Origin: a virus
DNA: 64,000 bases
Strand: one strand, 5' to 3'
IMG/VR virus record: IMGVR_UViG_3300036399_001571
Coordinates: 1 to 64,000 of that record
The translations under genes and the position numbers were made by a program. Position 1 is the stretch's first letter, and the number at the start of each line of letters is the position of its first letter. The notes under the pieces are model-generated. The model did not search any database. It had not been told where the DNA came from and worked only from the letters and a program-made list of their open reading frames with translations. Shown piece by piece: positions 15,948 to 59,315 of the stretch.

Positions 15948-15980
15948 TGGACTGAAAAGTTGCAACCTCAGAGGTAAGCC

Positions 15981-33099: not shown

Positions 33100-34035
33100 A
33101 TGCCATTTGTCAATCGCATCGGAAGCGGAGCAACCCGCAAGTTCGGGTTTGGGACAGGGGTTAAACCTGGCGCACCAACGATTGGGACGGCCACACGGGG
33201 AGACCAGCAGGCAAGCGTTGTTTTTACTGAACCCGCAGTACTTGGAACTGGGGCACCTACGTATACGGCTACTTCAAGCCCAGGTGGCTTAACGGCGTCC
33301 GGTGCAAGCTCGCCAGTCGTGGTTACAGGTTTAACAAACGGTACCGAATACACATTTACAGTCACGGCATCCAACTCTTTTGGCTCGTCGACATCTGGGT
33401 CTTCAAATTCAGTGACCCCAGCAGGAGTTCCAGCTACACCTTCAGCTCCAACGCAATCTGCAGGGAACGCTTCAGTCGCCCTCTCATGGACTGCACCATC
33501 GGCCAATGGTTCTGCAATTACCGATTACAAGATTTACTACGCAACTTCAGAAGCCGGCACTTACACGCTATTCAGCGACACCGTAAGCACCACTACGTCA
33601 GTCACGGTTACTGGACTAACGAATGGCACAGCCTATTACTTCAAGATTGCCGCAGTAAACTCAGTTGGAGATAGCGCCCTGTCTGCTGCTTCTGCTTCTT
33701 CCACTCCTGCCGCTCCACCGTTCTTCCCGTTCTTCCCTACCTTCGCTCCACCGTTCTTCCCGTTCTTCCCGTTCTTCCCTGACTTCGTCGACCCATGTGC
33801 TGGCGTGAATTGCGCTGCATACGGAGCCCCACCAGGGGGAGTATGGCAATCACAGGGATTTAACACCCAACCTTGGGACCCACACTGCATTAATGCAGGA
33901 TACCCTGCAGACCCACCATACTGCTGTAACTTTGGCACCAACACATGTGGGAGCGGTAATTCGTATTGGACCTCGTATATCAGCTCAGATGGTTGTTGTC
34001 AATTTAACTTGTATGTATACTGTGCTTGCAGTTAA
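33100..34035 (+). CDS. FN3 x2 + Pro/Phe repeat + Cys-rich C-terminal protein (putative fibre/decoration)
   Basis: Two FN3 units (PGAPTIGTA..TGLTNGTEYTFTVTASN; PATPSAP..TGLTNGTAYYFKIAAVN), PPFFPFFPTFAPPFFPFFPFFPDF, then 10 Cys. Confidence 0.8.
   Translation: MPFVNRIGSGATRKFGFGTGVKPGAPTIGTATRGDQQASVVFTEPAVLGTGAPTYTATSSPGGLTASGASSPVVVTGLTNGTEYTFTVTASNSFGSSTSGSSNSVTPAGVPATPSAPTQSAGNASVALSWTAPSANGSAITDYKIYYATSEAGTYTLFSDTVSTTTSVTVTGLTNGTAYYFKIAAVNSVGDSALSAASASSTPAAPPFFPFFPTFAPPFFPFFPFFPDFVDPCAGVNCAAYGAPPGGVWQSQGFNTQPWDPHCINAGYPADPPYCCNFGTNTCGSGNSYWTSYISSDGCCQFNLYVYCACS
33715..33786 (+). repeat. PFF-type coding repeat
   Basis: CCGTTCTTC units encoding PPFFPFFPTFAPPFFPFFPFFPDF. Confidence 0.9.
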
Positions 34036-34072
34036 GATGTTCACAACCAACACGCTAAAGGATTGACTATCA

Positions 34073-34306
34073 ATGGAACCAATTAACATTTATCCGCAAG
34101 ATAACCCGGACAACTTTCTATGGGTTGCTTTTGTCGTTGATGGAGAGGTTGGGGTCAAAATGCCGTTTCCACTACAAGCAAACCTATTGACAGCGGTTAT
34201 GTCATCAAACCCACAGGCTATTGTCATCACTGAAGAAGACAGACTCAATGTTACAACCGGATGGACATATAGTGACGGAGTATTCAGTCCGCCGGCAGGT
34301 GAGTGA
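34073..34306 (+). CDS. Small VVDGEV protein (paralog of 63253-63498)
   Basis: AFVVDGEV..AVMSSNPQAIVI..GWTYSDGVFSPP. Confidence 0.75.
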   Translation: MEPINIYPQDNPDNFLWVAFVVDGEVGVKMPFPLQANLLTAVMSSNPQAIVITEEDRLNVTTGWTYSDGVFSPPAGE

Positions 34307-34536
34307 GAATGACGCCATGGCAGGAATATAAGAAAAAACTTGGCACGACCAGGCCATGGGACATGGTCAATCCAAAAGCTGAGCATGTTTCGGTAGAGGA
34401 GGCTACGGCGCGTATGGATATATGCGAATTGTGCCCAAGTCTTCTAGGGGCTACTCATCAATGCAAGGAGTGCGGATGTTTCATGAAGTTGAAGACGAAA
34501 CTCAAGAACGCTGAGTGCCCTCTTGGAAAATGGTAA
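34303..34536 (+). CDS. Small Cys-rich metal-binding protein (DUF6171-like)
   Basis: RMDICELC, QCKECGCFM and AECPLGKW. Confidence 0.7.
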   Translation: MRMTPWQEYKKKLGTTRPWDMVNPKAEHVSVEEATARMDICELCPSLLGATHQCKECGCFMKLKTKLKNAECPLGKW

Positions 34537-34552
34537 TTTCAATCACTAATCT

Positions 34553-35212
34553 TTAATACCTGTTTCTTTCGTAAAAACCTATTTCTTTTACGAAACCAAC
34601 TACAACATACCTCACTGGTCCATCAGAAACAGTCTTTACCCCATGTTCGTACTCGCTGTTGCCAGGGAAAAATAAAAGGTCTTTTGGATTTGGTTTCAAG
34701 GCAATTTCACGATTCTTGAAGAAAATCTCCCCAGAATTGTAATCATCGTTTATATATAGTATTGAGGCATACCTGATTGACGGGTCAGTATGTTGGTCAA
34801 CATGTGATTTCAATTCCGTGCCGGGTGGCAATCTTTGCACGGTTGATAAACCGCTAAGAGTTAGAGATTGGTCGCATTCAAGTATCATTGATGACAAGCG
34901 GCGATGAATAGAGCGACAAACACCAAGATGCTCAATACCTAGTGTCTTGTCTGAAAAACCATGGGTGATTTCAAATTTTCCCTCTGCAATCAAGTTGTCA
35001 ATATCGGTTCTTCCAAACTTGAGCTTGCAAAAATTAACAACACCAGACATGTAGTGGGTTTCCCAATCTTTTTGCGTAGTGTTCTCTATTGCACTAGTTA
35101 TCGCATCTAGCTCTTCCTGTGTTATGAAATTTTTAATCCGAATCAACTCGTCGGTAATTTCTTCAAATTCCAGATTATTCAACTTGAGTTGAAGCAGAAA
35201 GTTCTCAATCAT
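34553..35212 (-). CDS. 2OG-Fe(II) dioxygenase (P4H-like)
   Basis: HVD, YINDDYNSGE, HGV and R motifs. Confidence 0.9.
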   Translation of the reverse strand: MIENFLLQLKLNNLEFEEITDELIRIKNFITQEELDAITSAIENTTQKDWETHYMSGVVNFCKLKFGRTDIDNLIAEGKFEITHGFSDKTLGIEHLGVCRSIHRRLSSMILECDQSLTLSGLSTVQRLPPGTELKSHVDQHTDPSIRYASILYINDDYNSGEIFFKNREIALKPNPKDLLFFPGNSEYEHGVKTVSDGPVRYVVVGFVKEIGFYERNRY

Positions 35213-35901
35213 TGGCGACACCACAAACAGTCACAATATTCCTCAACAAAATAACTATGATTCATTTGTTTTTCATTTCTAAGCCTATAATCTGTATCTG
35301 GCTTGTAGTCTCTGCTATGAGTGACATATCGCTGGTCGAATATCTGCGCCACTTTAGACCTGTTAGAAGCAACTGTTTTTCTAAATAAGTGATGTGTAGG
35401 TGTTTTTTTTGGTTTTGCATTATTTTTGAGTCTTTCTTCATTTTCTTCAAAATGTTTTTTTACGTCAGCTAAAAGACTAAGACCTATTTCACTATGTAAT
35501 TTAAGAATAAAATTACAATTGTTGGACCCAGGAAGCCCATTTACTTGGTCCCCATTTGGCAAGGCAACCATTTCTATTGTGTGGTTTAATTCATGAAGTA
35601 TTGGCTCTATATTTAATATTGGAATTGAATCCAAATCCGCATACATGCCGCCGTAAAAACAGGTCACAGAATATCTCCAGATATCCGATTGAGTCATTCC
35701 TGAATAATTGTCATATATTTCGGCCTCAATTGGAGATAGGCATAAAATATTTATTACTTCTTCGCGTCTTTCTTTGGGGTTTTTAAAACAATATTTCCAA
35801 TCTGGATATGTGTTTTTCCATAAGTTGCAGCATTTTTTGAAAGATTCATGAAGTTCTTCAAAGTCGCACTCATATGTTTGAAATATGTTTTTATTCCACA
35901 T
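35209..35901 (-). CDS. Glycosyltransferase, GT32/OCH1-like
   Basis: IFQTY, YPDWKY and SDIWRY...GGMYADLD (DXD). Confidence 0.85.
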   Translation of the reverse strand: MWNKNIFQTYECDFEELHESFKKCCNLWKNTYPDWKYCFKNPKERREEVINILCLSPIEAEIYDNYSGMTQSDIWRYSVTCFYGGMYADLDSIPILNIEPILHELNHTIEMVALPNGDQVNGLPGSNNCNFILKLHSEIGLSLLADVKKHFEENEERLKNNAKPKKTPTHHLFRKTVASNRSKVAQIFDQRYVTHSRDYKPDTDYRLRNEKQMNHSYFVEEYCDCLWCRQ

Positions 35902-35930
35902 TTCAAATTCTTACACTGTTATATAATTTT

Positions 35931-36635
35931 TTATTTTGTTGTGTCATTCACATATAATCTTAACACTTTTGCTTCGTGCGAACCTATGGATTCGTTCTTC
36001 TCGTTTACTGCATCCCTGTACCAGTCGGTGAACTCTCCAGCTCGATTAAGTTTTTGCGCTGCGTACCCATAGCTCGAATTTGCTTTAAGTCTTGTGTTTT
36101 CTGGGTCCGAATAAGTTGTGATATTTATTGACGAATTATTTAAAGCAGTTAGCGATATAGGGATTATTGTGGCAATTGGTGTTCCAGCTATTATTCGTGT
36201 CTCCGCATTGGCATTTTTTGCTTTTATTGCCAGAGGTATCGGGTGGTCATAAAATGACGTGCTAATAAAGTTGGACATTGTCTCAAAATCATTATTAAAA
36301 TAATTGACTGGATTGATTGTCCAAAGACTTATGTCTTCGGCGGTTCTAAAAATTAGTCCGGTGTTTAAACTTATCGAAGACTGACCCCTGCCAGCATATG
36401 CATCAATAGGGCTTGTTATTTTTATATGGTCTGGGGTCTGGTCGTTGATTCCGTCCCATGTGAAAACTATGTCTTCTTTACAGGAGAGGCTCCACCCGAC
36501 CACATTCGCCTGCGTGACCGGGAAGCACCTATACGCATGGTTCCCTGATGTTTCGTCCATCCAGTCTCTTTTTACGGACATCTGAGAGATTTCAAAAATT
36601 GAACCGTTTGTTTTTTCAACAGAAATTTCAATCAT
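35931..36635 (-). CDS. DUF6065-like protein
   Basis: HAYRCFPVTQANVVGW and AGTP; paralog of 49466-50167. Confidence 0.65.
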   Translation of the reverse strand: MIEISVEKTNGSIFEISQMSVKRDWMDETSGNHAYRCFPVTQANVVGWSLSCKEDIVFTWDGINDQTPDHIKITSPIDAYAGRGQSSISLNTGLIFRTAEDISLWTINPVNYFNNDFETMSNFISTSFYDHPIPLAIKAKNANAETRIIAGTPIATIIPISLTALNNSSINITTYSDPENTRLKANSSYGYAAQKLNRAGEFTDWYRDAVNEKNESIGSHEAKVLRLYVNDTTK

Positions 36636-37297
36636 TTCTCATCATTCCATTTCCTGTCGTACATATCTGGCGTATGATATTTTTTGCTGTAATCAAGCAT
36701 GGTTACGATTGAGTACTTTGTCCCTGCGGTCACCGGCATGGCTTGATGTGGGTACATGTAGTTTGACGGAAATACATAAAGGTCTCCTGCCTGTGGTTTT
36801 ATTTTTAAATTTTGCAGTCTAAAAAATAGCTCTCCGCCTTCGTAATCGTCGTTGACATATCCAACCAACGAGACCGTGCAGTTATATGAGAATCCGTGGT
36901 CTTGGTGTTCTTTGAAGTGCTGACCTGGGCCATACTTAACAAAATTCATTGCTTCCCAATACTTGAGGGACGCTATGTTGTGTTCGGAGCGATAGTCTCT
37001 GACGGCCGGAAGTGCGGAATCATAAATGTCCTGCCAAAGCGATTGTAAATTCAAGCTAACAGTGCTTTTGTCGTGTTCAATATCTGTTTTTTTAAATTTA
37101 AAATCAACACAGTCTCTGTACTCTGGCACTAATTCTTGGTATCCAACATATGCTGGCTGCCAACTATAACCAGTTGTATCGCCGACTGGTTTTAGGTTCG
37201 ATTCAATTCTATTGATAACATCAAAACTCGATTTGATTATATTTCTGTAACACTTTATGCCATGCCCAAAATCGATTTTTTCTGTCCATGTTTGCAT
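36632..37297 (-). CDS. 2OG-Fe(II) dioxygenase (HxDHG subfamily)
   Basis: HQDHGFSYNCTVS, YVNDDYEGGEL and HQA..V..GTKY; start moved to MQTW. Confidence 0.9.
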   Translation of the reverse strand: MQTWTEKIDFGHGIKCYRNIIKSSFDVINRIESNLKPVGDTTGYSWQPAYVGYQELVPEYRDCVDFKFKKTDIEHDKSTVSLNLQSLWQDIYDSALPAVRDYRSEHNIASLKYWEAMNFVKYGPGQHFKEHQDHGFSYNCTVSLVGYVNDDYEGGELFFRLQNLKIKPQAGDLYVFPSNYMYPHQAMPVTAGTKYSIVTMLDYSKKYHTPDMYDRKWNDEK

Positions 37298-37307
37298 TTG
37301 AAATGCC

Positions 37308-38084
37308 CTACTTGTATTTTCTTCTTGACCAAATTTTGTTTTTGTAAACCCCACCATCGGGCTGGCGGTAAAATCTTGCATTGTTCATGTATTTGGACTG
37401 CATTTCTTCTTGTCCCAACATTTCCACTTTGTGTTCCCAGTCTTCTCTTTTGAACGGGAAAATCTGGAGATAGGGAGTCCCAGCAGGTATTACGCCCTCC
37501 CAGCCCTCAATGAGGAAAAACGGAAAACTTCCCAGTAAATGAACCTTATCTGAGTCAACGATTCCTGTTGTGTTCAAGAATGGAAGGTCAAACCTATTCA
37601 TCGGCGTCATAAACAAGGCACTATAACCTTCTGGGAGTTCTATGCCCCAGTCAGCAAACCATGCAAAATGGTGGTCGTAATAACCCTGTGGATGTACGAA
37701 ATCCGGCATCGGCGTTCTTGGCGTGCAGAAGTTTTTATACTGACTATTTTCTACCTTGACGTCAATTAAACCTTGAGTGTTTTTGTAAAATGTCAAGTCG
37801 CAAGGAGTTTTAAAAACATATCCGGTTAAAAAGGCGTCCAGAATAGCAGGACAGGCTTTCCATGTCGGAATTTTACCGTAATCGTCTGTTGTTCCTTCTT
37901 TTGGAAATGGACAAATTTCTTTTGTTGCTTTACGGTATTCCCCGTTTAGATTTTTTTCAAAACTGTCAGCATCTTTATACCATTGTGGAGCGGCGCTTTG
38001 TGCTGCTGATGGGGCGTATTTATTTTCTTTGTCCAGCCATGGTCTATGTGGTCTGAATATTGCGATGTTGTATTGCTCGCTCAT
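37308..38084 (-). CDS. DUF6065-related protein
   Basis: KACPAILDAFLTGY, TGIVDSD and IPAGTP. Confidence 0.55.
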   Translation of the reverse strand: MSEQYNIAIFRPHRPWLDKENKYAPSAAQSAAPQWYKDADSFEKNLNGEYRKATKEICPFPKEGTTDDYGKIPTWKACPAILDAFLTGYVFKTPCDLTFYKNTQGLIDVKVENSQYKNFCTPRTPMPDFVHPQGYYDHHFAWFADWGIELPEGYSALFMTPMNRFDLPFLNTTGIVDSDKVHLLGSFPFFLIEGWEGVIPAGTPYLQIFPFKREDWEHKVEMLGQEEMQSKYMNNARFYRQPDGGVYKNKIWSRRKYK

Positions 38085-38794
38085 TGTTTATGCCCTAGCT
38101 TATTTATGTCGGTCATGACTACTACACAGTACTTTATGCCAGATTTTATTGGAAGTGACGCATGCTCGTAAATATAATTTGATGGAAAAATTGCAATATC
38201 CCCAACTTTTGGTTTGTGCACATAACCGTCAAGTCTTGGGAATTCAATTTCTCCACCCTCATAATCGTCGTTGATGTAGATGACGGCAGAAACAGTGCAA
38301 TTGTATGCCGGTCCATGGTCTGCATGTATATTGAAATGCTTACCCTCGCCATCGTATTTTACGAAGTTGAAAGCTTCATAGTAAACAACACTTATACCCC
38401 AGTATCTAGCATAGTCATCAATGCAAAACTTGAGTTTTTCATATATCTCTTGATGAAGGTCCAGAAGCTCGGAGTTGTGCTCGTCTCTTGGTCCTAGATT
38501 TTCTTGCTTGTATTTGAAATCGTAACAGTCTCTTGCTTTTTTTATCGGAATATTAGAATTTGTTACCTGGGCTTCGTTCCAGCTGTATTTTTTGTTCCCG
38601 GACAAATTTGACTCAAGAATCTTGATGTATCTATTTGAATCTTCAAGCGAAAAAGTATTTTGGTATATGTTTAATCCTAGTGCTGGATTTTGGGCTGTAA
38701 TTGTTTCACTGGCAGCTCGATGGATTCTATTTGACGCAGTCTCTGACCTGTCTTTTGTGAACCATGGAATTGCGTTTTCATCATAAATACTCAT
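38081..38794 (-). CDS. 2OG-Fe(II) dioxygenase (HxDHG subfamily)
   Basis: HADHGPAYNCTVS, YINDDYEGGE and HAS..I..GIKY. Confidence 0.9.
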   Translation of the reverse strand: MSIYDENAIPWFTKDRSETASNRIHRAASETITAQNPALGLNIYQNTFSLEDSNRYIKILESNLSGNKKYSWNEAQVTNSNIPIKKARDCYDFKYKQENLGPRDEHNSELLDLHQEIYEKLKFCIDDYARYWGISVVYYEAFNFVKYDGEGKHFNIHADHGPAYNCTVSAVIYINDDYEGGEIEFPRLDGYVHKPKVGDIAIFPSNYIYEHASLPIKSGIKYCVVVMTDINKLGHKQ

Positions 38795-38834
38795 ACATGT
38801 ATCTTATAGTCAGGCTCGGTGCTAGCATCGTTAC

Positions 38835-39134
38835 ATGGAATTAATAGGAACATGGTTCATAACCGCAACCTCGCCCCTGGGAAAAGAGACATATAACCTG
38901 CGTTTGAATGACGATGGTTCTGGCTCAATTTCACATGACAGGGGAATCGTGGAATTTTCAGATGCTCTAATCAGCACCTCTGACGAGTCCATGACAGTGA
39001 AGATTTGCGGCCACACAGACATACCAATGAGCGTCGACTTTCTGTGTCAATTTGAGTCAGTAGGCAAATCTCTTGCTGGATTTGTAGAAATCGGCAAATA
39101 CGCAAACATCGAAATAAACGGGGTAAAGATATGA
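38835..39134 (+). CDS. Small beta-rich hypothetical protein
   Basis: GTW.IT..SPLG beta-barrel-like start; ATGA-coupled to the next gene. Confidence 0.6.
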   Translation: MELIGTWFITATSPLGKETYNLRLNDDGSGSISHDRGIVEFSDALISTSDESMTVKICGHTDIPMSVDFLCQFESVGKSLAGFVEIGKYANIEINGVKI

Positions 39135-39754
39135 GCATCAAGTCAGTTTTTGATATGCCGATAAAATCTGTAGATGGAACGTTTGATGTTATGGACTCGG
39201 TTCGTGGCAAGGTTTGCTTATTCACGAACATCGTCACCAAGACTGGCTACACCCCAAAATGTAGCCCCATCTGGTCTTACGCAAGAGCTGCCAGACAATT
39301 ATGGGAGCTACAGCAGCTTCATGAAATGTTTTCAGACAAAGGTTTTAGCGTTGTGGGATTTCCGTGCAATCAGTTTGGCCAAATGGAACCATCCGACAAT
39401 GAGGATATAAGTCAATTCATATCAGAGGCCTATCCATTTGTGACTTTCCCAATTACAGAAAAAATTGAAGTAAACGGTCCGGGCGAACATAAAATATGGA
39501 GTTTCCTAAAAGGTGACACCGTTCGTGCTTTTGATGACAGCAAGGCAGATGGTTCAGATAAAGCTGCATCCGGGCAGAACCTAGCTGGACAAGCGATAAT
39601 GCGCATACCTCACAACTATGAGAAATTCATGGTTAGCAGAGAAGGTCAGCAAGTTGCGAGATTGAACTGGGCCGACCTCCCACTTGCCGAACAGCCGCTT
39701 GCAGCGGGCTCCTCATGGACCGTTATAGAGGCAGTGAAGTCTCTTGTAGGTTGA
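39131..39754 (+). CDS. Glutathione peroxidase-like protein with atypical active site
   Basis: VVGFPCNQFGQMEP, VTFPITEKIEVNG and HNYEKF. Confidence 0.85.
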   Translation: MSIKSVFDMPIKSVDGTFDVMDSVRGKVCLFTNIVTKTGYTPKCSPIWSYARAARQLWELQQLHEMFSDKGFSVVGFPCNQFGQMEPSDNEDISQFISEAYPFVTFPITEKIEVNGPGEHKIWSFLKGDTVRAFDDSKADGSDKAASGQNLAGQAIMRIPHNYEKFMVSREGQQVARLNWADLPLAEQPLAAGSSWTVIEAVKSLVG

Positions 39755-39756
39755 TT

Positions 39757-40755
39757 ATGAAAATGCCTTCGACCCCGACCATTGGGGCCAATGAACTTAA
39801 AGAGATAAGTGAATTAGTTGTCGAGGACCTTGGCAGTGGAATAGTCGTTTTTAGAAACGCTTTTTCCGTTGAGGACTTTATTCTCAGACATATAGACGAT
39901 TGTGCTGCAGAGGCACATAAGAGCAGATGGTCGTATGTAACCGATGAGGATGGGGTTGAATACGGGATAAACGAGGACGGCTTTAGATACCGCCTAGAAG
40001 ACGTCCCAAATGCCCCTGTAAGGCTCCTGGAGCCCGTTACAGAGGCGACAAGCCCCAATGTGGTCGAATACTTCACCTATCTTGAGGACGCAATCTACAA
40101 GTGTCTAATACGCTATACGGACATGTTTCCGCTGATAGTCGGAAGCCTCTGGTGGAGGACCAGGGGTCACATACTCAGATATGACGGTGGGGGCATTCTT
40201 GGGTGGCATCAAGACAATGACACGAACTACAAAGTGACCCAGGGTGTCAGGTATATGCCAAGGGGGCAGGTGGCGCTCCGACAGACCGCTGGAGCCCTTG
40301 CGTATTTCAACGACTGCGTTGACACTAAGGAAGAACTTGATGGCACCAACTTTTCTGGCGGCCATCTTAAGTTTGCATACCTCGGGATTGACTACAAGCC
40401 CAAAAAGGGGGACATCATTATGTTCCCTACAAACTACATATGCGCTCACGGTGTAACAAAGATGGATGGTGGCACAAGATATGCATATCTCTCGTTCTTC
40501 GGACAAGGCGGAACAGATAATGCTGCAAACATAAGAATAAAGGAAAAAGACGCGAGTATTCAATGGTGTGAGCCAGTTTGGTTCGACAACATCTATGACG
40601 ACTACGAGTTTTATTGCAAGTCTGAATACTCAATCTGGTCAAAACCAACCCCAGGTTTAGAGCTTGGCTCAAACCCTGTATTCCAAAATAGATGCGTCAC
40701 TCAATACGGCGATACGCACACTGCGCTGGAGGTGAACCAAGTTGAAACGATATGA
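39757..40755 (+). CDS. 2OG-Fe(II) dioxygenase (LGGG/HxDND subfamily)
   Basis: DLGSGIVVFRNA, HQDND, FSGG and HGV...GTRY. Confidence 0.9.
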   Translation: MKMPSTPTIGANELKEISELVVEDLGSGIVVFRNAFSVEDFILRHIDDCAAEAHKSRWSYVTDEDGVEYGINEDGFRYRLEDVPNAPVRLLEPVTEATSPNVVEYFTYLEDAIYKCLIRYTDMFPLIVGSLWWRTRGHILRYDGGGILGWHQDNDTNYKVTQGVRYMPRGQVALRQTAGALAYFNDCVDTKEELDGTNFSGGHLKFAYLGIDYKPKKGDIIMFPTNYICAHGVTKMDGGTRYAYLSFFGQGGTDNAANIRIKEKDASIQWCEPVWFDNIYDDYEFYCKSEYSIWSKPTPGLELGSNPVFQNRCVTQYGDTHTALEVNQVETI

Positions 40756-44729: not shown

Positions 44730-44738
44730 GTCAGTATG

Positions 44739-47560: not shown

Positions 47561-47561
47561 T

Positions 47562-48323
47562 TTAGTCCTTAACGAAAGCCGTGTATCCGTAACTTTCAGA
47601 GTTGTGAAATGTGCTTCCATTTGAAAACTTTAGCACTTCGTGTAAATCACTTAGTGGGTGCAGGTTGTAATCGTCTCTGTAAATCTTCCCGGAATTGTTT
47701 GTTGAGTTTATCAGCAGCACACCGCCAGAAGACAGGGAGCCAATGCATTTTTCAAGCAACTCTATATCGTAAGCAACATCCCAGCCCATAACTTGAATTA
47801 GGTCAAAACCGGAAGCCTCTCCGTCGCCTATCTCGTCTGGCTCGACAACGCCATAACTTGTATCTCTAAGGCTTTCCGAACCGATACTCATGGAGTGGTC
47901 ACGTAGAAAAGTTTCAAAATTATAAAGAGATTGATTGTTAACAAAATTTATGCTGATGTTTTTTCTCTTAGAGAATTCTATGAATTGCGAACTCCACAAA
48001 TCCGGACTAAAAAACAGTATTTTTTCTGGATTCTTGACAGACATAAACAACTCAACCGAGTTATGCATGTTTGCCATTATCTCTCTCCACCCAGTCTGTG
48101 GGTTTAGGAGCAAATCCATATACCAAACCCCCTCCGAAGTACCCCTGGATGCGATTGACATATTCAAGTTCAAGGATGCTCGCCAATCAATTGCTTTTTG
48201 CGCTGACTCAAAGACCTCGTTAGTTATATCTTCCCAGGATGATTCCGTCCCCAGAACACGCTGCATGGGAGTATTACTCAACAGATGCGTAACCATTGCA
48301 GTACGTAGCCACCTATTGTCCAT
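47562..48323 (-). CDS. Possible SAM-dependent methyltransferase-fold protein
   Basis: FDLI and LSSGGVLLI C-terminal pattern; no clear glycine-rich SAM loop. Confidence 0.4.
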   Translation of the reverse strand: MDNRWLRTAMVTHLLSNTPMQRVLGTESSWEDITNEVFESAQKAIDWRASLNLNMSIASRGTSEGVWYMDLLLNPQTGWREIMANMHNSVELFMSVKNPEKILFFSPDLWSSQFIEFSKRKNISINFVNNQSLYNFETFLRDHSMSIGSESLRDTSYGVVEPDEIGDGEASGFDLIQVMGWDVAYDIELLEKCIGSLSSGGVLLINSTNNSGKIYRDDYNLHPLSDLHEVLKFSNGSTFHNSESYGYTAFVKD

Positions 48324-48633
48324 TTTCAGACGCCTTTGCCAACTTGTAGTTCCAGTATGCCTCTCGTGCAATACTTGTCATCTTTACATTTATTTTTGCC
48401 AAAAATCTTGGTATTGAATTAGACGTATAATCAGCGCTTGCGCCTCCCCTAATGTCACTGCTGTACTTCCAGAGCTGGCGTATTTTTACAGCTGCGTAAT
48501 CAATCCTCATTGAATCAATGTCGCTTGGGTCTTGGTCTGTAATAAAACATATGACCGCAAGTTTTTGTTCATTTCTTTTGGCGTCTTTTTCGGCGTCGTA
48601 CAAGTTTGCTCCGCCACTTTCCCTAGTTCTCAT
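48313..48633 (-). CDS. Hypothetical protein
   Basis: Fills the operon and overlaps its neighbours; start uncertain. Confidence 0.6.
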   Translation of the reverse strand: MRTRESGGANLYDAEKDAKRNEQKLAVICFITDQDPSDIDSMRIDYAAVKIRQLWKYSSDIRGGASADYTSNSIPRFLAKINVKMTSIAREAYWNYKLAKASENGQ

Positions 48634-48931
48634 TTGCTATTTCCTCCACTAATTCGTTACGGGTGAAGTCTCCAGGTTCTGTTTCTTCCCATTTTCTCTG
48701 TGGGTCATTTGACTGGAGTAGGTCGCAAAAAAAGGCAGCTCCATCTGGGAGTTCAAAGGATAAAAGCGCTGGATTCCAGCGAGGAACTTGGCTATCCCTA
48801 TTCGGGTTTTGCATTGGTTCTTGGATGAATGGATAATCCGGGTCCATATCTGGGCATATTTCATACCTCCCAGAATTTAGTGCAATTTCGACTATTGAAA
48901 TCTTCCGTGGTATTTTTGGAGCTATTTTCAT
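48623..48931 (-). CDS. Hypothetical protein
   Basis: Operon context. Confidence 0.6.
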   Translation of the reverse strand: MKIAPKIPRKISIVEIALNSGRYEICPDMDPDYPFIQEPMQNPNRDSQVPRWNPALLSFELPDGAAFFCDLLQSNDPQRKWEETEPGDFTRNELVEEIANEN

Positions 48932-48940
48932 AACCGCCCA

Positions 48941-49174
48941 CTAATCCCGGAGTCTTGCCAGCGCCGCCAATTGAAGTTTCAAACATTCGTATGCATCGTA
49001 CTGTGCAAGCAATGCAGTGTTTTCGTTTACCGAAAGGTCAACTGGGTTTTCCATACCAGCCTCTAGGTCATCATCTTCCACACCAAGAACAAAAGCAAGC
49101 GTGTATATTGAGTATTCGAGTATCTGAATTGCTTCAGCCTTGGCCTTTGCCAATTGTTCTGGTGTTAGTGCCAT
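48941..49174 (-). CDS. Small helical hypothetical protein
   Basis: 77 aa; operon context. Confidence 0.65.
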   Translation of the reverse strand: MALTPEQLAKAKAEAIQILEYSIYTLAFVLGVEDDDLEAGMENPVDLSVNENTALLAQYDAYECLKLQLAALARLRD

Positions 49175-49183
49175 GTTGGAAGC

Positions 49184-49420
49184 TTACTCAGCAATTCTTA
49201 ACTTGATGTTGTTAATCTTTGAGATAAAATCAGCAATCAATTTGTGGCCATGAATAATGCCGTTTGAGTCCATACCTGGGGTGAAGTTGACATCATCAAA
49301 CGTGTCTGGGTCGAAACCTTCTTGGAGCAGTCTCTCCATAAGCTGTCTCTCAATGTCCTTCAGGGTGCGCTGATAAACAAGCTTTTTTTCCTGAGTTGTA
49401 AAAGAAGATTCAAATTTCAT
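49184..49420 (-). CDS. Small helical hypothetical protein
   Basis: 78 aa; GGAGCAGCC upstream. Confidence 0.65.
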   Translation of the reverse strand: MKFESSFTTQEKKLVYQRTLKDIERQLMERLLQEGFDPDTFDDVNFTPGMDSNGIIHGHKLIADFISKINNIKLRIAE

Positions 49421-49465
49421 GGCTGCTCCGTAATCCGTACGTTGGACAAGTACCCATATTCTACA

Positions 49466-50167
49466 CTACGGATTGGCCAATTTCGGCAGACCAGTGAATG
49501 TCGGCCCTATCCGATTATCGTCAGCGTCAAGACCTGTACGAATCCCTTTGGTCCAAGTCCATGGTTTTTCAATACCATTTCGCGCCTTGAGTTCACCATA
49601 TTTCATTCTAGAATCCACCAGCTCGGCATCGTCCCAGAAATTTGAAACAATAACTTCGGTGTTTTCCAGAATTGAATTATCGTAAATATTAAAAAAACAA
49701 AATGGACTTCCTGCTTCAAAAACTACAGGCTCTCCAATTTTTGTTATTTTCCAGTTCATTTGAGATTCATCCGGCCACCAGTAGCTGGGTATTGTCGCAG
49801 TGAGCGGTATTGCTCCATCTACAAAATAGTTTGGAGAGCCTGAAAACCACGTGTTGTAACCTTCTTCAGTATTAATGACCCACCCCATATGGATGGAAAT
49901 CATTCCTATTATTGAAGATGTAGCCTGAACGCGACCGGATGAAGATATCTCGCCAGAAAGAATAACGGGAGGAGTATTTCCTCCATCCCACTGGACAACA
50001 AGGTCTTCCTCCATTTGCAATTCCCATCCGTAGACGTTTGCAACAGTCATTGGCAGGCACTGATAAGCGTGTTTATTGTAGGTGTTATCCATCCAGTCTC
50101 TTTTAATACGAGACTGTTCTATAACAGGTGGTTTCGAGTGCATTTTTTTAAGGAATAACTTTGTCAT
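49466..50167 (-). CDS. DUF6065-like protein
   Basis: HAYQCLPMTVANVYGW, VQWDGG, SGSPN, WWP and AGSPFC. Confidence 0.75.
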   Translation of the reverse strand: MTKLFLKKMHSKPPVIEQSRIKRDWMDNTYNKHAYQCLPMTVANVYGWELQMEEDLVVQWDGGNTPPVILSGEISSSGRVQATSSIIGMISIHMGWVINTEEGYNTWFSGSPNYFVDGAIPLTATIPSYWWPDESQMNWKITKIGEPVVFEAGSPFCFFNIYDNSILENTEVIVSNFWDDAELVDSRMKYGELKARNGIEKPWTWTKGIRTGLDADDNRIGPTFTGLPKLANP

Positions 50168-50898
50168 TTTTTAAAAATAAACCTTTCCCCAATGTCGCTA
50201 GATGTTGAAAAAACATTTGACTTATCGTATGTTGCTTTTTCCCCGTCAAGGTCTTTGCCGTAACCTTTCCACATTTTATGGAATCTGTCATTGTAGTCAA
50301 ACATTGTAACTGCTGCGTATTTGGTACCCCTCGTTACAGGCAGAGATGCATGAGCATAAATGTATGTAGATGGGAACATCACTATGTCGCCATAAGTTGG
50401 TTTGAACTTTATGTCAAGGTATGGGAACCATAATTCTCCACCCTCGTAATCGTCATTTAAATACATAACCGAAGACACTGTGCATATGTAAGAAAAACCA
50501 TGGTCAGCGTGTATGCTGAAGTGCTGCCCCTCCCTGTATCTAACATAATTAATTGCCTCCATAAAATCCATGCGCAAGTTGTATCTTGCTTCGTAATCTT
50601 GAAGGCAGGCTGTTAATCCATATACGGTATCGTTGTATATATTTATTAATTCAGAAAATTCTGATGGACAATTTTCAAGATGTGTTGGACTTATTTTACA
50701 GTCCACGCAATCTCTGTAGTCCTTCATTACTTCACCATCGCCAACCAGCGCCTGCATCCATGAGTATGGTGGCGTACTGCTTCCCCCAACAGTCGCCTCG
50801 AGGCGCTCTGGGATTCTCAAATCCTCGCTAAGCACATTTCTGTAAACTAGAAAACCTGCTTTGGGGTCGCCAACATATTCTACTTCAATGTTTTTCAT
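50164..50898 (-). CDS. 2OG-Fe(II) dioxygenase (HxDHG subfamily)
   Basis: HADHGFSYICTVS, YLNDDYEGGEL and HAS..V..GTKY. Confidence 0.9.
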   Translation of the reverse strand: MKNIEVEYVGDPKAGFLVYRNVLSEDLRIPERLEATVGGSSTPPYSWMQALVGDGEVMKDYRDCVDCKISPTHLENCPSEFSELINIYNDTVYGLTACLQDYEARYNLRMDFMEAINYVRYREGQHFSIHADHGFSYICTVSSVMYLNDDYEGGELWFPYLDIKFKPTYGDIVMFPSTYIYAHASLPVTRGTKYAAVTMFDYNDRFHKMWKGYGKDLDGEKATYDKSNVFSTSSDIGERFIFKK

Positions 50899-50902
50899 GA
50901 AA

Positions 50903-51436
50903 TCATCCTACACCCTCAAACCAGAGCGGCAACACCAAGCGATAGCCGTTTTTTACATTATCCACATAGTGCGAATAATCGATTCCGCTTGGGAAAAGCA
51001 CGCAGCTACGAGCAATTGGTTTGTATGAAATAGATAATTTTGGAAAAACTAGTTCTCCTCCTAAAAAATCATCATTAAAGTAAACAATCGAAGAAACAAC
51101 AAAATTTGAACAGCCATCCTTGTGGGAGCCATCCATGTTGACATTGTCTGCATGCTCTTCCGGTTTGTGGCCGACCTCCGTTTTGAACAAATTTGGCACA
51201 CAGGAATCAAGACTCAAACCGAACATTTCCTCAGCAGCAATTCGCACCCTTTCGGAAATAGAAAAAAGAATACCGTAGACAAAATCGTCTAAACACAAAA
51301 TATAATCACTACTGTAATACCTTACGCAATCATCGTCTTTTGCGTGATTTTCAACTTCTGGATATTTATTTACAAATTCAATAATTAACGAGCGTTCTTT
51401 CTCGGAAATAAAATTAAATTCATAGAATATTTTCAC
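50903..51436 (-). CDS. 2OG-Fe(II) dioxygenase
   Basis: HADN, YFNDDFLGGEL and HYV..V..GYR. Confidence 0.88.
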   Translation of the reverse strand: MKIFYEFNFISEKERSLIIEFVNKYPEVENHAKDDDCVRYYSSDYILCLDDFVYGILFSISERVRIAAEEMFGLSLDSCVPNLFKTEVGHKPEEHADNVNMDGSHKDGCSNFVVSSIVYFNDDFLGGELVFPKLSISYKPIARSCVLFPSGIDYSHYVDNVKNGYRLVLPLWFEGVG

Positions 51437-52066
51437 TCACTTCTCCACAGTATAAAAAGATGGCGTTGTATACCTGTAGCCTTTTTCAATCATGGTCACA
51501 CCATGCAAATAATTAACATCTCCTGGGTGTATTACTGCTAAACCTGGTCTTGGTTTAACGCTGATTTCGTGTTGCGGATAATAAAGTTCGCCACCGTCAA
51601 AATCATCGTTGTAATAAAATAACGAGTTTATATCGTAATTTACAAAAGCGTTTGGTCTTCCATCATTGAGCTGTTTGTCTGCATGCGGGCGTTGCTCTAT
51701 CCCGGGTCGCCACTTCATTATCACGGGTGGTCGGACTGATACCTGTACATTGAAAATATTTTCAATTGTGTTCTTCATTTTATGTATATATTTATCTATT
51801 ATTTTATGGACATCAGGATTTAGTCTAAGAATGATTTCGCTGCTGCACTGTCTATCATTCCAATAATCAGCGTTGTACAAACATGTTCCATCTTCCGAGT
51901 AAACGCTTTCTGCTTCATTGTTCCACTCGTTTATAGTTGGGCAAAAATTTTGTATTTTGTTTAGGTCTTCTTGGTCTATAAAATTTTCGATTATATGAAT
52001 ATTTTCTGGACCGCTACCAAAATGGCCCGGTGGTATTTCCCATGGTGAATTTTCAATTGCCGACAT
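51437..52066 (-). CDS. 2OG-Fe(II) dioxygenase
   Basis: HADK, YYNDDFDGGEL and HGV....GYRY. Confidence 0.9.
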   Translation of the reverse strand: MSAIENSPWEIPPGHFGSGPENIHIIENFIDQEDLNKIQNFCPTINEWNNEAESVYSEDGTCLYNADYWNDRQCSSEIILRLNPDVHKIIDKYIHKMKNTIENIFNVQVSVRPPVIMKWRPGIEQRPHADKQLNDGRPNAFVNYDINSLFYYNDDFDGGELYYPQHEISVKPRPGLAVIHPGDVNYLHGVTMIEKGYRYTTPSFYTVEK

Positions 52067-52084
52067 GTCAACAAGACTACCAAA

Positions 52085-52831
52085 TTACCGTTTCTGCACC
52101 AAATCATACAAATATTGGTCTATCTCAGAACGTCGTTTTATTTCTTTTATGTGGCTTTTATCTGGTTTGAATCCATTTTTATTTGAACAATTTAATGTGT
52201 TATAAATTGATTTATCCAAAGAAAAACCATGTGATTTTTTTAATTTTTGCTCAAGCCAGCTAATTGCCTCTAATCTTTTAGGAAGCGAAAACAAGTTCAT
52301 ATATTCAATTAACTCTTTTATCCCATCTTCGTCCGGCATGTCATTTTCTATAAAAACAATATTTTCATCATTCCGAACATCGTCATTACTAAGCGACACA
52401 AGAGACTTGTCAACAAATGCAATTCTGCAAAACAACATTTTTGACTGTATGTTTCCAGAGTTTGAAAACAGCTCATTAACCCCAAAGGGTGTCATGTTCC
52501 CATAGATGAACTCATCCATGTATTCATTCGACATTTTTAAACCAGCGCCAACTGATGCGTAAGCCGCAATACTCACAAAATGCTCTACTGGGTCTCTGAC
52601 TATTGAGAAAACTTCAAAGCCGTCGTTATTGTAAACAATTGGATTTTTTGCAAAGTGTCCAGATATGAAAGGAAAGTCTCTCATTCCTTCGTCGTCGTAC
52701 ATTAGCTGTGATTCATGTGCGTCTGGTAAATACACATCAACAATTCCATTATTGTAAAATGTTTTCCATAGTGCGTGGCAAATACCCATTCCTGAAGTTC
52801 TGGGTATATGCAAGTGGTACAAGCGCTTCAT
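52085..52831 (-). CDS. Sulfotransferase-like protein
   Basis: HLHIPRTSG (5'-PSB-like), SGHF and VRDP....S (3'-PB-like). Confidence 0.75.
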   Translation of the reverse strand: MKRLYHLHIPRTSGMGICHALWKTFYNNGIVDVYLPDAHESQLMYDDEGMRDFPFISGHFAKNPIVYNNDGFEVFSIVRDPVEHFVSIAAYASVGAGLKMSNEYMDEFIYGNMTPFGVNELFSNSGNIQSKMLFCRIAFVDKSLVSLSNDDVRNDENIVFIENDMPDEDGIKELIEYMNLFSLPKRLEAISWLEQKLKKSHGFSLDKSIYNTLNCSNKNGFKPDKSHIKEIKRRSEIDQYLYDLVQKR

Positions 52832-52835
52832 AAAT

Positions 52836-53585
52836 TTATCGTGCATCAAGAATTCTTTTTTGTTCTTTAGTAAAAAGTATGTTGTAAATTTCAAAATCTA
52901 GCCAAATTTTTGACATGATTAAATTTTTATGTTTTTTGCTTATCTTAAAATCTAGTCTTGGTGTTGAATTTACTATCTCAATGCTGTTCTCTATTTTTAT
53001 CTGAAACAAATCATACAAATACGCATTTAAAATATTGATAAAATAATCTCTATTTACAACAGTTCCAATAATTATGTTTTCAATTTTATTCATCACATCT
53101 TCTATTGATTGTGGTTTTTCCACAAACACAACTTTTTCGTGATTTGCAGTTTGCAATGCGAGGTATGAAGTCTTTGAATAAAGAAAACAAGACTGAGGGT
53201 TTTCGCAGCCGGACATACCCTCAAATTGAGACAACATTTCATTGCCCTCTGTCAAAAAAAAATCAAGAAAATCTTCCGTGAACGGTTGATTCGTATAGCT
53301 CGCAGCGTATTTTAATGTGCTTAGGTATTGTTCGTATGGCTCACGAATCATAGAAAATGAAAAAATGTTTTTAACTGTTTCTATTGGATTTCTCCCGAAA
53401 TGTCCACAGATTATTTCATTTGTTTTGGCTGTATCTGGGTTGAATACAAATTCAAATTCGCCCGGCAAATACACAGAAGGCTTAACTTTGTTTTTGCATT
53501 TACGAGCAGCATTTAACAAGTCGTACTGCATCTTCATTCCGGATGTTTTTGGTATGTGCAAAAAATAAGCTTTTTTATATTTCAT
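52836..53585 (-). CDS. Sulfotransferase-like protein
   Basis: FLHIPKTSG, CGHF and IREP....S. Confidence 0.78.
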   Translation of the reverse strand: MKYKKAYFLHIPKTSGMKMQYDLLNAARKCKNKVKPSVYLPGEFEFVFNPDTAKTNEIICGHFGRNPIETVKNIFSFSMIREPYEQYLSTLKYAASYTNQPFTEDFLDFFLTEGNEMLSQFEGMSGCENPQSCFLYSKTSYLALQTANHEKVVFVEKPQSIEDVMNKIENIIIGTVVNRDYFINILNAYLYDLFQIKIENSIEIVNSTPRLDFKISKKHKNLIMSKIWLDFEIYNILFTKEQKRILDAR

Positions 53586-54189
53586 TAATTTTAGCCATGT
53601 CAACCAACATTTTATTTTTTGTTGGAACCCAAAAATGGGCAGATGTGTACCGCACGCCAGAAATAATTTCGTTAACTCCGTGAGTGTAATTTCTGTTTGA
53701 TGGGAAAAATATGAGTGTCCCAGGTTTCGGTTTAAGTTTTATGTGATATTTTGGGAAAAAAATTTCTCCGCCCTCATAGTTGTCGTTCAAATACATAATT
53801 GAACCATAATCAACTATGTAGTTGTATGTAGGCCATCCACCTGCGGTTTCTCCGTCAGCATGAAGGTCTTGTCTTTCGCCTGGATGCCATTTCCTTAAAC
53901 CTGGATTTGCTTTTTCGAGTTCTCTACCAAAATGATATTCAATTTCATATTGAACATCATTTACACAATTTTGCAGTATCTGGTGTATCTGCGGAGAATT
54001 GTTTTGTATTTGAATATGTGTATGAATACTGTCAGAACCTAGTGGGCTCTGTGTTCCCCACTCAGTTGTTTTTTTGCAATATTCGTATATTTTTTTTACA
54101 TTTTCCGCAGAAATAAAATTTTCTTTTATAACTATGTTTCCAGGGTTTGAAAATGGAAGAGACTCTACATCAATCCAATCTGAATCCAT
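53575..54189 (-). CDS. 2OG-Fe(II) dioxygenase
   Basis: HADG, YLNDNYEGGE and HGV..I..GVRY. Confidence 0.9.
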   Translation of the reverse strand: MDSDWIDVESLPFSNPGNIVIKENFISAENVKKIYEYCKKTTEWGTQSPLGSDSIHTHIQIQNNSPQIHQILQNCVNDVQYEIEYHFGRELEKANPGLRKWHPGERQDLHADGETAGGWPTYNYIVDYGSIMYLNDNYEGGEIFFPKYHIKLKPKPGTLIFFPSNRNYTHGVNEIISGVRYTSAHFWVPTKNKMLVDMAKINEI

Positions 54190-54198
54190 CTACAGCGC

Positions 54199-55440
54199 TC
54201 ACTTAAATCCTGGAAAGAATGACGGAGGGAAGAACGGTGGGAAGAAAGGTGGGAAAAACGGTGGGAAAAACGGTGGGAAGAAAGGTGGAAAAAATGGAGG
54301 GAAGAATGGCGGGAAGAATGGAGGAAAATAAGGTGGAAAGTAAGGTGGGGCAACTGGTGTAACCGAACCTGAAGTTGCAGATTGCGAGCCATACGCGTTT
54401 GATGCCGTTACGGTAAACGTATAAGAAGTACCGTTGCTAAGACCAGTAAGGGTGACTGGTGATGCCCCAGTTGATGAAACCCCACCAGGGGACGAAACTG
54501 TTGTATGCGTTGTAGCACCAGTTCCAGCAGTGGCATTTGTATATGTAATAGTTGCTTGCGCGTTGCCGCCAGCAGCAGAAACGCTCGTTGGCGCTCCTGG
54601 TCTATTTCCTGCAGTAACAGAGTTTGATGATACTGACGTTGCAGAGCCGTATGTCGTAGATGCACTGACGGTGAATGTATAAGCGGTTCCAGCTGTTAGC
54701 CCAGTTGCTCTGATTGGACTTGTACCAGTAAAAGTCAAGCTGCCTGGAGTCGTGGTTACCGTATAAGTTGGAGAACCAGTCCCAGCTGAACCAGGAGTGA
54801 AGGGGACATCGATTGCTCTGTCCACGTTTTGAACTATTGCTGCGGTACCAATTGTTGGAGCGGTTGGAGCGTTACCTGCAGTCACTGAGTTTGAAGAACC
54901 AGAAGTTGCTGAACCAAATAGGTTTGATGCAGTAACGGTAAACGTATAAGCGGTTCCAGCAGTTAGGCCGGTAACTCGAATTGGGCTAGAACCAGTTGCG
55001 GTTATTCCACCGGGTGATGATGTCGCGGTAAAAGTTGTTACACCAGTTCCTGCAGTTCCAGCTGTGTATGGAACATCAATTGCTCTATCGACGTTTGCGA
55101 CAATTGAAGCAGTTCCAATTGTTGGTGCACCTGGGTTTTGGCCGATTGCAACAGACCCAGTTGTGACAGTGTCGGATGGAACTCCATAGTTTGTGTTTGC
55201 TACTAGAGAAAATGTATAAGTTGTTCCAGAAGTAAGACCTGTGAGTGTTATTGGTGAGCTAGATGCTGAAGCACTAACGTCTCCAGGGCTAGACGTCACC
55301 GTATAGGTAATTGTGTCTTTGCCAATATATTCAGACGGGGTAAAAGATATTGAAGCTACTGTGCCTGCGCCGGTATTGGTCGCAACGACATCTGTCGGTG
55401 TCGTTGGCTTTTTACCGCCACTATCTTTTAGTGCTTCCAT
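54199..55440 (-). CDS. FN3 x4 protein ending in a PPFF tandem repeat
   Basis: Four FN3 units (TGLT.GT.YTF) and C-terminal (PPYF)2(PPFF)8PPSFFPGFK. Confidence 0.85.
   Translation of the reverse strand: MEALKDSGGKKPTTPTDVVATNTGAGTVASISFTPSEYIGKDTITYTVTSSPGDVSASASSSPITLTGLTSGTTYTFSLVANTNYGVPSDTVTTGSVAIGQNPGAPTIGTASIVANVDRAIDVPYTAGTAGTGVTTFTATSSPGGITATGSSPIRVTGLTAGTAYTFTVTASNLFGSATSGSSNSVTAGNAPTAPTIGTAAIVQNVDRAIDVPFTPGSAGTGSPTYTVTTTPGSLTFTGTSPIRATGLTAGTAYTFTVSASTTYGSATSVSSNSVTAGNRPGAPTSVSAAGGNAQATITYTNATAGTGATTHTTVSSPGGVSSTGASPVTLTGLSNGTSYTFTVTASNAYGSQSATSGSVTPVAPPYFPPYFPPFFPPFFPPFFPPFFPPFFPPFFPPFFPPFFPPSFFPGFK
54211..54348 (-). repeat. 12-bp coding repeat encoding PP(F/Y)F
   Basis: Ten 12-bp units with synonymous variation, plus PPSFFP. 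Confidence 0.92.
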
Positions 55441-56220: not shown

Positions 56221-56222
56221 GA

Positions 56223-59299: not shown

Positions 59300-59315
59300 T
59301 GATTACTCCAGTCAT

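Follow-up and report, generated by a model that had tools for sequence, protein, structure and literature searches.

A proline-phenylalanine tract gene beside an oxygenase array in a probable actinophage: a candidate fibre-tract tailoring module

The window analysed here covers the initial 64 kb of an IMG/VR phage record of 172.5 kb (IMGVR_UViG_3300036399_001571). It holds genes for proteins with tracts of tandem Pro-Phe-Phe (PFF) or Pro-Pro-Phe-Phe (PPFF) units, and between the first two of these lies an island of 2-oxoglutarate (2OG)-Fe(II) oxygenase genes. One tract gene stops 9 bp ahead of the first oxygenase of a long run (its stop at 54199, the next start at 54189), and its product is a candidate substrate of the adjacent enzymes. 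The pairing of tract and array is kept across unrelated phage backbones, so the tract can be put forward as a testable candidate substrate for phage oxygenases. The locus is best explained as one version of a mobile module with which freshwater phages, probably actinophages, would tailor a fibre tract.

The first tract gene (33100-34035, plus strand) encodes an FN3 protein (fn3 E 5e-20) with a mixed PPFF/PFF tract, at 33715-33777, and a Cys-rich tail of about 85 aa. It belongs to the type found with what is called cassette A below, and its relatives stand before cassette A in other phages. The second (54199-55440, minus strand) encodes a protein resembling four FN3 domains in series (fn3 E 1e-17), with ten C-terminal PP[YF]F units (54229-54348), a 9-aa tail and the features of the cassette-B type. 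A homologue with 81% identity occupies the same position in a close relative (L218). The PPFF tract is encoded by varied synonymous codons and is therefore maintained at the peptide level. Of the third gene, the window contains the 3' part (63551-64000, minus strand), with one PPFF and four PFF units and a short tail rich in Cys; its reading frame stays open past the window end, as far as 64603. This third gene adjoins no array. A six-frame scan of all 172.5 kb finds these three tract genes only. More than one tract protein per genome seems to be usual: the 108.9-kb phage G034 encodes a second one of 1,152 aa (15373-18828, minus strand) far from its array. All three genes, and the 9-bp gap, had been claimed in an original prediction made from the sequence alone, and they are where that prediction placed them according to open reading frame (ORF) calling, with Pfam support for the first two. 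A collagen/extensin-like surface coat had been inferred as well. A collagen helix is ruled out, since the tracts are made of P, F and Y and lack a Gly at regular intervals.

Between the first two tract genes lie 15 oxygenase genes, three DUF6065-type genes, a GT32-like glycosyltransferase gene, two sulfotransferase-like genes and a desaturase-like gene, exactly the inventory that had been predicted. Three genes can be added to it, for a glutathione peroxidase (39131-39754), an NAD-binding protein (41706-42248) and a methyltransferase-like protein (47562-48371). The array is densely packed. Downstream of the PPFF gene, and on the same strand, it begins with the oxygenase 2OG_n (53575-54189; PF13640 E 3.8e-8) and continues with the two sulfotransferase-like paralogues (52836-53603 and 52085-52894). 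These are followed by the cassette B core (49466-52066), transcribed in the order 2OG_m (51437-52066), 2OG_l (50903-51436), 2OG_k (50164-50898) and DUF6065_c (49466-50167). Two small minus-strand ORFs of 77 and 78 aa (48941-49420) occupy the sole apparent gap of the array. Beyond them is an accessory stretch (46044-48931, minus strand), assigned by Pfam and weak NCBIfam matches, which comprises a desaturase-like di-iron hydroxylase (46044-46868), an AspH-type oxygenase (46865-47620), the methyltransferase-like hyp269 (47562-48371, so called from an atlas lead of 0.88 only), hyp106 and hyp102. Five oxygenases identified by Pfam (2OG_f, 2OG_g_long, 2OG_h_long, 2OG5_i and 2OG_j; 42245-46047, minus strand) complete this run, and their homologues recur in cassette-B loci.

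The strand then changes for a block of five plus-strand genes (38835-42248). The block consists of hyp99, the glutathione peroxidase, two long 2OG oxygenases with 55% mutual identity (39715-40755 and 40742-41713; Pfam) and the NAD-binding protein, which is 6PGDH-N-like by Pfam. In L218, unlike in the window, hyp99 and the peroxidase gene share the strand of the array, and this difference indicates that local inversions took place in the array. The remainder of the island is cassette A (34553-38794, minus strand), recognized with Pfam and, for the b type, hhalign. Its transcription order is 2OG_c (38081-38794), DUF6065-like_b (37308-38084), 2OG_b (36632-37381), DUF6065_a (35931-36635), the GT32-like gene (35209-35901) and 2OG_a (34553-35224), and G034 has the same order. 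The island is a fusion of two modules, with both cassettes and both tract types. With its 15 oxygenases it is among the largest examples; the fetched loci have a median of 8 and at most 12.

Genes of the fibre and baseplate region flank the island. Three plus-strand genes before the first tract gene (29095-30543, 30545-32071 and 32116-33093) match PHROG tail, baseplate-wedge and tail-fibre families with modest E-values. Upstream of the PPFF gene, PHROGs identify a minus-strand group (55444-62336) that encodes a fibre-like protein of 266 aa, a virion structural protein of 921 aa, a protein of 103 aa and a fibre protein of 1006 aa. The order of this group recurs ahead of tract genes in relatives. 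The 0.5-kb spacer between the first tract gene and the end of cassette A, which converge, contains a 98-aa ORF (34090-34386, minus strand) that is doubtful as a gene.

What kind of enzymes does the island encode? Thirteen of the 15 oxygenases match PF13640, one (2OG5_i) matches PF13759 and one, the AspH type, PF05118. Eleven island proteins exceed the PF13640 gathering score of 27 bits, and 2OG_j (24.2) and 2OG_m (24.4) lie just under it. The predicted count of 15 is borne out by Pfam, with the fold as support for 2OG_m, which is below the cut-off. A PF13640 search of the whole 172.5-kb genome gives 12 matches, every one within the island. Candidates for the HxD/E...H...R/K motif are present in 13-14 of the 15 by regular-expression scan (2OG5_i is a misfit), and in the 2OG_m family H127, D129, H187 and R197 are invariant. 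The fold test covers one paralogue, 2OG_m. Its model (predicted local distance difference test score, pLDDT, 94.4) has as top Foldseek match the PBCV-1 prolyl 4-hydroxylase (P4H) vCPH (5c5t, E 1.7e-10), followed by P3H1, the Bacillus anthracis P4H (3itq), LH3, PHD2, 2jig and C-P4H-II. The nearest solved structures by sequence for 2OG_c and 2OG_m are again B. anthracis P4H, LH3/PLOD and P3H1; for 2OG_g_long no solved structure was matched by sequence. Resemblance to AlkB is absent in both fold and sequence searches. The sampled core enzymes are therefore supported, by family, sequence and fold, as collagen/P4H/PLOD-type protein hydroxylases, in agreement with the P4H-type reading of the original prediction, and peptidyl Pro/Lys hydroxylation is their predicted activity. 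Identity to the nearest paralogue is 26-55%, and three oxygenases have no significant similarity to the rest. Judged from their sequences, the paralogues are old.

The DUF6065-type proteins are the second recurrent component. Two of the three that had been predicted are above gathering for Pfam DUF6065 (PF19541), at 148.7 bits (49466-50167) and 87.1 bits (35931-36635). The third (37308-38084) has no Pfam match and is recognized as a distant relative by hhalign alone (91.7%, E 7.7e-7). Two methods give the DUF6065_c model (pLDDT 82) a dUTPase-like fold: Foldseek, with a probability of 1.0, and VIA-align, where Z reaches 11.1. The family has one invariant Cys, C36. A protein of phage Syn9, gp43, matches the DUF6065 profile (E 3.4e-11). 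Thus DUF6065 corresponds to the "dUTPase-fold protein with a conserved cysteine" described for the Syn9 array (Iyer et al., 2010, PMC2938197). In a literature search DUF6065 went unmentioned, and Pro-Phe repeats or tracts were not linked to phages.

A full profile search for DUF6065 returns 3,690 clusters. Its long members are fusions with PF13640, JmjC/Cupin_8, Stf0 sulfotransferase, PF11397 N-acetylglucosamine (GlcNAc) transferase and TPR domains (P0242, P0245, P0196, P0244, P0209, P0188, P0179, P0200 and P0253). Contigs of cellular origin, the longest of 786 kb, carry some of the fusions, and Caulobacter has members of the family as well. The fusion partners belong to the same enzyme classes as the island genes. 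This suggests that DUF6065 is a shared partner of protein-modifying enzymes, perhaps an adaptor. Two further points would fit an adaptor: PF11397 comprises the GlcNAc-transferases that act on the hydroxyproline of Skp1, and dUTPases form trimers.

Some of the remaining island genes could serve to decorate a hydroxylated product. The GT32-like protein matches PF04488 (Gly_transf_sug, the DXD sugar-binding region) at E 9.1e-10 and 39.6 bits, against a cut-off of 23, and the desaturase matches PF00487 (E 1.5e-24), so both of these predicted functions hold at the family level. The sulfotransferase-like proteins have no Pfam match at E up to 5. They are 26% identical to each other (E 1e-18), one of them has an atlas feature score of 0.97 with 26 of 30 matches in Sulfotransfer_2 (PF03567) clusters, and both have the motif HIP[RK]TSGM, which may be a loop that binds 3'-phosphoadenosine-5'-phosphosulfate (PAPS). 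The glutathione peroxidase has an NCBIfam match at E 2e-26. How general are such genes? Homologues were counted across 69 array loci of at least 12 kb. Genes like 2OG_m are present in 68, 2OG_k in 55 and DUF6065_c in 54, and the glutathione peroxidase and hyp269 are each present in 31. The sulfotransferase-like gene ST_a is found in 19, the desaturase-like gene in 8, the AspH type in 6 and the GT32-like gene in 3. Consequently sulfation or glycosylation, if any, would be a lineage-specific extra, and its presentation as a general step was overstated. The underlying logic of hydroxylating first and decorating later fares better. It gains support from the natural fusions, in which DUF6065 is joined to domains of the P4H, JmjC, sulfotransferase and GlcNAc-transferase types.

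What if the island instead makes or tailors a small molecule, a peptide metabolite or a lipid, either to remodel the host envelope or as a secondary metabolite? Tandem dioxygenase arrays have been read as secondary-metabolite pathways (Iyer et al., 2010, PMC2938197). The AspH-type gene has weak NCBIfam matches to OlsC/LpxO and the desaturase-like gene to GntB/CrtR, and the occurrence of DUF6065 in a cellular genome, Caulobacter, also fits. However, the nearest relatives of the core enzymes are hydroxylases of Pro or Lys in proteins, and Pfam scans of the island find no non-ribosomal peptide synthetase, polyketide synthase, ATP-grasp enzyme, halogenase or transporter. The lipid-type genes are rare (6-8 of the 69 loci), and their NCBIfam matches are far under the cut-offs. 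A metabolite pathway is therefore considered quite unlikely.

The association of tract and array was surveyed in both directions. In DNA pattern scans, either type of repeat is found at 119 or more viral loci. Among the matches listed, 35 records with a tract are 40 kb or longer, and PF13640 genes occur in 31 of these, mostly in 6-13 copies. The four without oxygenases (G025, G026, G029 and G033) are spurious, with runs of 9-18 residues in short simple-sequence ORFs, and tracts on giant-virus contigs are likewise such runs rather than tract proteins. Repeat positions and gene maps reveal a constant one-strand order of fibre genes, tract protein and oxygenase/DUF6065 array, and in at least 10 records the tract gene is directly upstream of the array on the same strand. 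With informative tract genes defined as those for which at least 2.5 kb of downstream sequence is available, an oxygenase or DUF6065 homologue lies within 4 kb downstream of 113 of 129 (88%, again among the matches listed). The reverse sample was drawn via DUF6065 genes, independently of the tract. Here a same-strand upstream tract gene accompanies 25 of 27 cassette-A and 37 of 47 cassette-B informative loci. One of the cassette-A negatives (L228) has a two-cassette layout like that of the window, and the tract is farther upstream on its contig. The co-occurrence that had been proposed as a check is thus positive in both directions, and independent distribution of tracts and arrays is not seen.

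The two cassettes come with different tracts. Cassette A generally consists of 2OG_c, DUF6065-like_b, 2OG_b, DUF6065_a, a 2OG_m-like gene and 2OG_a, and it pairs with mixed PFF/PPFF tracts that have tails of about 21-38 aa. Cassette B consists of 2OG_m, 2OG_k, DUF6065_c and long oxygenases, and it pairs with near-pure PP[FY]F tracts (99% PP units) that have tails of 1-11 aa. In other words, tract type follows cassette type. The module also appears to be mobile. G034, which is complete, has 26 ORFs in common with the 172.5-kb genome. The cassette-A genes of the two are 56-79% identical, whereas identity is 25-37% for the other common genes, the longest of which encodes ribonucleotide reductase. 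None of the head or tail genes has a match between the two. As far as such comparisons can tell, the module has moved as a block between unrelated phage backbones.

Tract proteins look like the ends of fibres. The (P)PFF tract is 40-130 residues long and stands at the end of fibre-region proteins. The N-terminal parts of these proteins fall into 29 clusters at 60% identity, and the tract columns are nearly invariant. Domains found in them are FN3 (13 of 31), PASTA, He_PIG, CBM_4_9, SusE and Peptidase_S74, so that the predicted fibre role is backed by adhesin-type domains as well as by a fibre chaperone. Several cassette-B tract proteins end at a "...PPAFK" motif. In a 226-aa protein of L037 (1085-1762, minus strand), Peptidase_S74 (E 3.6e-11) starts at residue 123, right after this motif. 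The S74 chaperone works on trimeric fibres. Other tract proteins run into Cys-initiated Hint/intein-like domains, for which Pfam matches are weak and below gathering (L195:4273-5502, L158:5253-6659, L056:2140-3858, L160:3619-5091 and L086:3566-6478). The Hint-like domain suggests autoprocessing that leaves the tract C-terminal, or transfer to another molecule. With processing by either S74, an arrangement for which L037 is the one example, or Hint after the tract, the tract would be the mature C-terminus. A reading of the tract as akin to a ribosomally synthesized and post-translationally modified peptide was set aside: most tract proteins are large, with a median ORF of 272 aa and a maximum of 1,561 aa, many have folded adhesin domains, and there is no protease or exporter gene near the tract genes.

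The host has a bearing on what the enzymes might do. The 172.5-kb genome has a myovirus gene set, with portal, large terminase and tail sheath genes. The 921-aa virion structural protein is 42-45% identical to cyanomyovirus proteins, and fibre-region proteins are likewise cyanomyovirus-like, which would suggest a cyanophage. However, psbA was not found in the 172.5-kb genome, and three WhiB-family genes are present outside the window (90062-90253, 117730-117894 and 139995-140207). These two observations speak against a cyanophage and indicate that the host is probably actinobacterial, i.e., that this is probably an actinophage. The phages G034, G038 and G015, which bear the module, have WhiB genes too, and Corynebacterium is the sole control genome to match. 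This distribution points to actinobacterial hosts for the whole module-bearing group. A search for PF07068 (Gp23) gave no match anywhere, control genomes included, and is uninformative.

No host could be assigned from cellular genomes. There are ten PPFF matches among 185,579 species genomes. At least six of the ten loci contain pieces of this phage module, and their contigs had been assigned to unrelated phyla, in all likelihood by mis-binning. Searches of 50,697 cultured phage records by megablast (fibre region), blastn (tract DNA, for which the BLAST low-complexity filter may have masked matches) and tblastn (DUF6065_c) found nothing. Oxygenases of cultured phages are only 25-32% identical to those of the island, and DUF6065 is not detectable by BLAST there. 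Promoter and terminator scans gave counts no higher than those of shuffled controls. Elsewhere in the window, a PAPS-reductase-family gene (13708-14853, plus strand) matches phrog_2302 at E 4e-79 and, weakly, NCBIfam models, DndC among them; it could act in DNA modification or sulfur metabolism.

Marine cyanomyoviruses carry one to five oxygenases, for which roles in 2OG consumption and nitrogen signalling, succinate supply or DNA repair have been proposed (Sullivan, 2010, PMC3037559). By extension, the island might serve general infection physiology, using 2OG to steer host nitrogen signalling, to supply succinate or to repair DNA. This is very improbable. Fifteen old paralogues in a fibre-linked operon, together with DUF6065, sulfotransferases and a glycosyltransferase, are superfluous for burning 2OG. 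No oxygenase is AlkB-like in the fold and sequence searches, and with psbA absent and WhiB present a cyanobacterial logic based on NtcA is probably inapplicable.

The most likely explanation is that the adjacent battery hydroxylates the tract post-translationally with DUF6065 as adaptor, to which a probability of about one half is given. Under this scheme, the hydroxylases would act on tract prolines during late gene expression. The paralogues might split positions or stereochemistry between them, and possibly act on other residues or on neighbouring fibre proteins. DUF6065 would be a shared subunit that holds the substrate for the modifying enzymes. In the window phage the new hydroxyls could then be sulfated and perhaps glycosylated or methylated, and the glutathione peroxidase and the NAD-binding protein would handle oxidative by-products. 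A trimeric fibre would thereby acquire a hydroxylated part, either a stiff stalk or an adhesive end. The original prediction had the phage hydroxylate both Pro and Phe of its own fibres. Adjacency and enzyme type support the Pro part; however, hydroxylation of Phe is pure conjecture. The scheme can be taken further. Phages might have a multi-enzyme pathway that makes a heavily hydroxylated and, depending on lineage, sulfated or glycosylated Pro-Phe polymer at the fibre tip, a new class of biopolymer akin to extensins and mussel adhesive proteins, with DUF6065 as a substrate-presenting subunit in viruses and cells alike. This larger picture is offered tentatively, as something possible rather than probable.

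Several observations weigh against tract hydroxylation. A clade of phages of 98-205 kb (G036-G040) has related arrays right after a gene like that for the 266-aa fibre protein, with no Pro/aromatic tract anywhere in the record, so that a whole lineage keeps arrays and lacks the tract. In a DUF6065_c tree, presence or absence of the tract requires exactly one change, with 100/100 support. The association therefore reflects deep conservation of synteny plus block transfer and not repeated independent co-gain. The 40-kb stretch that holds the Syn9 array is also without a Pro/Phe tract, and Gly-rich proteins precede the array. At the family level, several of the accessory enzymes are similar to hydroxylases of lipids or free amino acids, and 6-15 diverged hydroxylases exceed the obvious need of a two-residue repeat. 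Finally, hydroxyproline was not detected in PBCV-1 virions despite an active viral P4H (PMC7019647).

Perhaps, then, the battery modifies other proteins, such as neighbouring fibre or virion proteins or host proteins like translation factors, and the tract is an independent fibre element that happens to share the same variable region. The array-only phages and Syn9, where arrays follow fibre genes and a tract is absent, fit this idea. So do the title of the B. anthracis-type P4H structure 5v7y, which names EF-Tu as the modified protein, and the many diverged paralogues, which suit many substrates better than one repeat. Nevertheless, tract type follows cassette type, the tract persists while the rest of its protein varies, and the 9-bp junction together with the 88% downstream adjacency goes beyond what a common variable region would lead one to expect. 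Modification of proteins other than the tract is the main rival, on balance rather unlikely, and tract hydroxylation is kept as the leading explanation.

Few unexplained accessory genes are as common in aquatic phages as those for 2OG-Fe(II) oxygenases, and the roles proposed for these enzymes range from DNA repair to metabolite synthesis (Iyer et al., 2010; Sullivan, 2010). The module offers a specific and cheaply testable candidate substrate 9 bp upstream of the enzymes, together with a candidate adaptor domain in DUF6065. Should the tract prove to be modified, phage 2OG oxygenases would have their first known natural substrate, and the module would represent a dedicated enzyme battery for tailoring a phage fibre protein and a source of a new Pro-Phe structural or adhesive material. 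If it is unmodified, the next candidates would be other fibre proteins, as suggested by Syn9 and the array-only lineage.

How much of this has precedents? The original prediction had stated that no characterized phage system of this kind was known. The idea itself has precedents. In 2010, tandem dioxygenase arrays of phages, Syn9 included, were described, and fibre-like proteins encoded alongside modifying enzymes were predicted to be hydroxylated and then sulfated (PMC2938197). The PBCV-1 P4H is a further precedent (PMC7019647). What is new here is the pairing of two cassettes with two tract types, the array-only clade with its single-event tree, the fold and fusions of DUF6065, the link to Syn9 gp43 and the actinophage assignment.

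The closest known system is that of Syn9, where gp41-gp54 include a tandem array of 10 dioxygenases that was read as a secondary-metabolite pathway and not as a means of modifying the virion (Iyer et al., 2010, PMC2938197). Like the island, Syn9 has many diverged 2OG dioxygenases in tandem on one strand just after fibre genes (gp32-39 before gp41-54 in Syn9; in the window, the fibre genes at 62336-55444, then the tract gene, then the array). Both arrays also include a dUTPase-fold protein with a conserved Cys, although Syn9 has one DUF6065-type gene (gp43) and the island three. The oxygenases of the two are 21-32% identical. Syn9 differs in having two tryptophan halogenases and a JmjC/MINA member, neither of which was found in the island by Pfam scans of all its proteins. 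The Syn9 proteins gp36, gp38 and gp39, encoded upstream of the array (L361, 8856-12328), are extremely Gly-rich and may be the counterpart candidate substrates.

Two eukaryotic viruses provide single-enzyme comparisons. The PBCV-1 enzyme vCPH resembles the island enzymes in being the best structural match of 2OG_m (PDB 5c5t), and its peptide substrates are not known to be Pro-Phe repeats. It is a single enzyme with no adjacent substrate gene and no DUF6065, whereas the island encodes a battery. Work by Eriksson et al. (1999), cited in PMC7019647, describes it as a small viral P4H that is sequence-specific on Pro-rich peptides. The second comparison is L230 of the giant Mimivirus (PDB 6ax6), a weak sequence match of 2OG_c (E 0.14-0.18). 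L230 is a lysyl hydroxylase/glycosyltransferase that modifies viral collagen-like surface fibres. It differs from the island as one bifunctional enzyme that acts on Lys in Gly-X-Y collagen repeats.

The nearest parallel to the proposed chemistry comes from bacterial operons in which 2OG enzymes of the beta-hydroxylase or phytanoyl-CoA-hydroxylase type are encoded together with a sulfotransferase and tail-collar or collagen-like proteins, and in which hydroxylation and sulfation have been predicted (Iyer et al., 2010, PMC2938197). The resemblance lies in a co-encoded fibre-like protein that is proposed to be hydroxylated and then sulfated, and the island likewise has an AspH-type enzyme and two sulfotransferase-like proteins. 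However, those operons are cellular, they remain predictions, and their putative substrates are Gly-rich collagen-like or T4 tail-collar proteins, whereas the island combines a Gly-free Pro/Phe tract, as candidate substrate, with core enzymes of the P4H/PLOD type.

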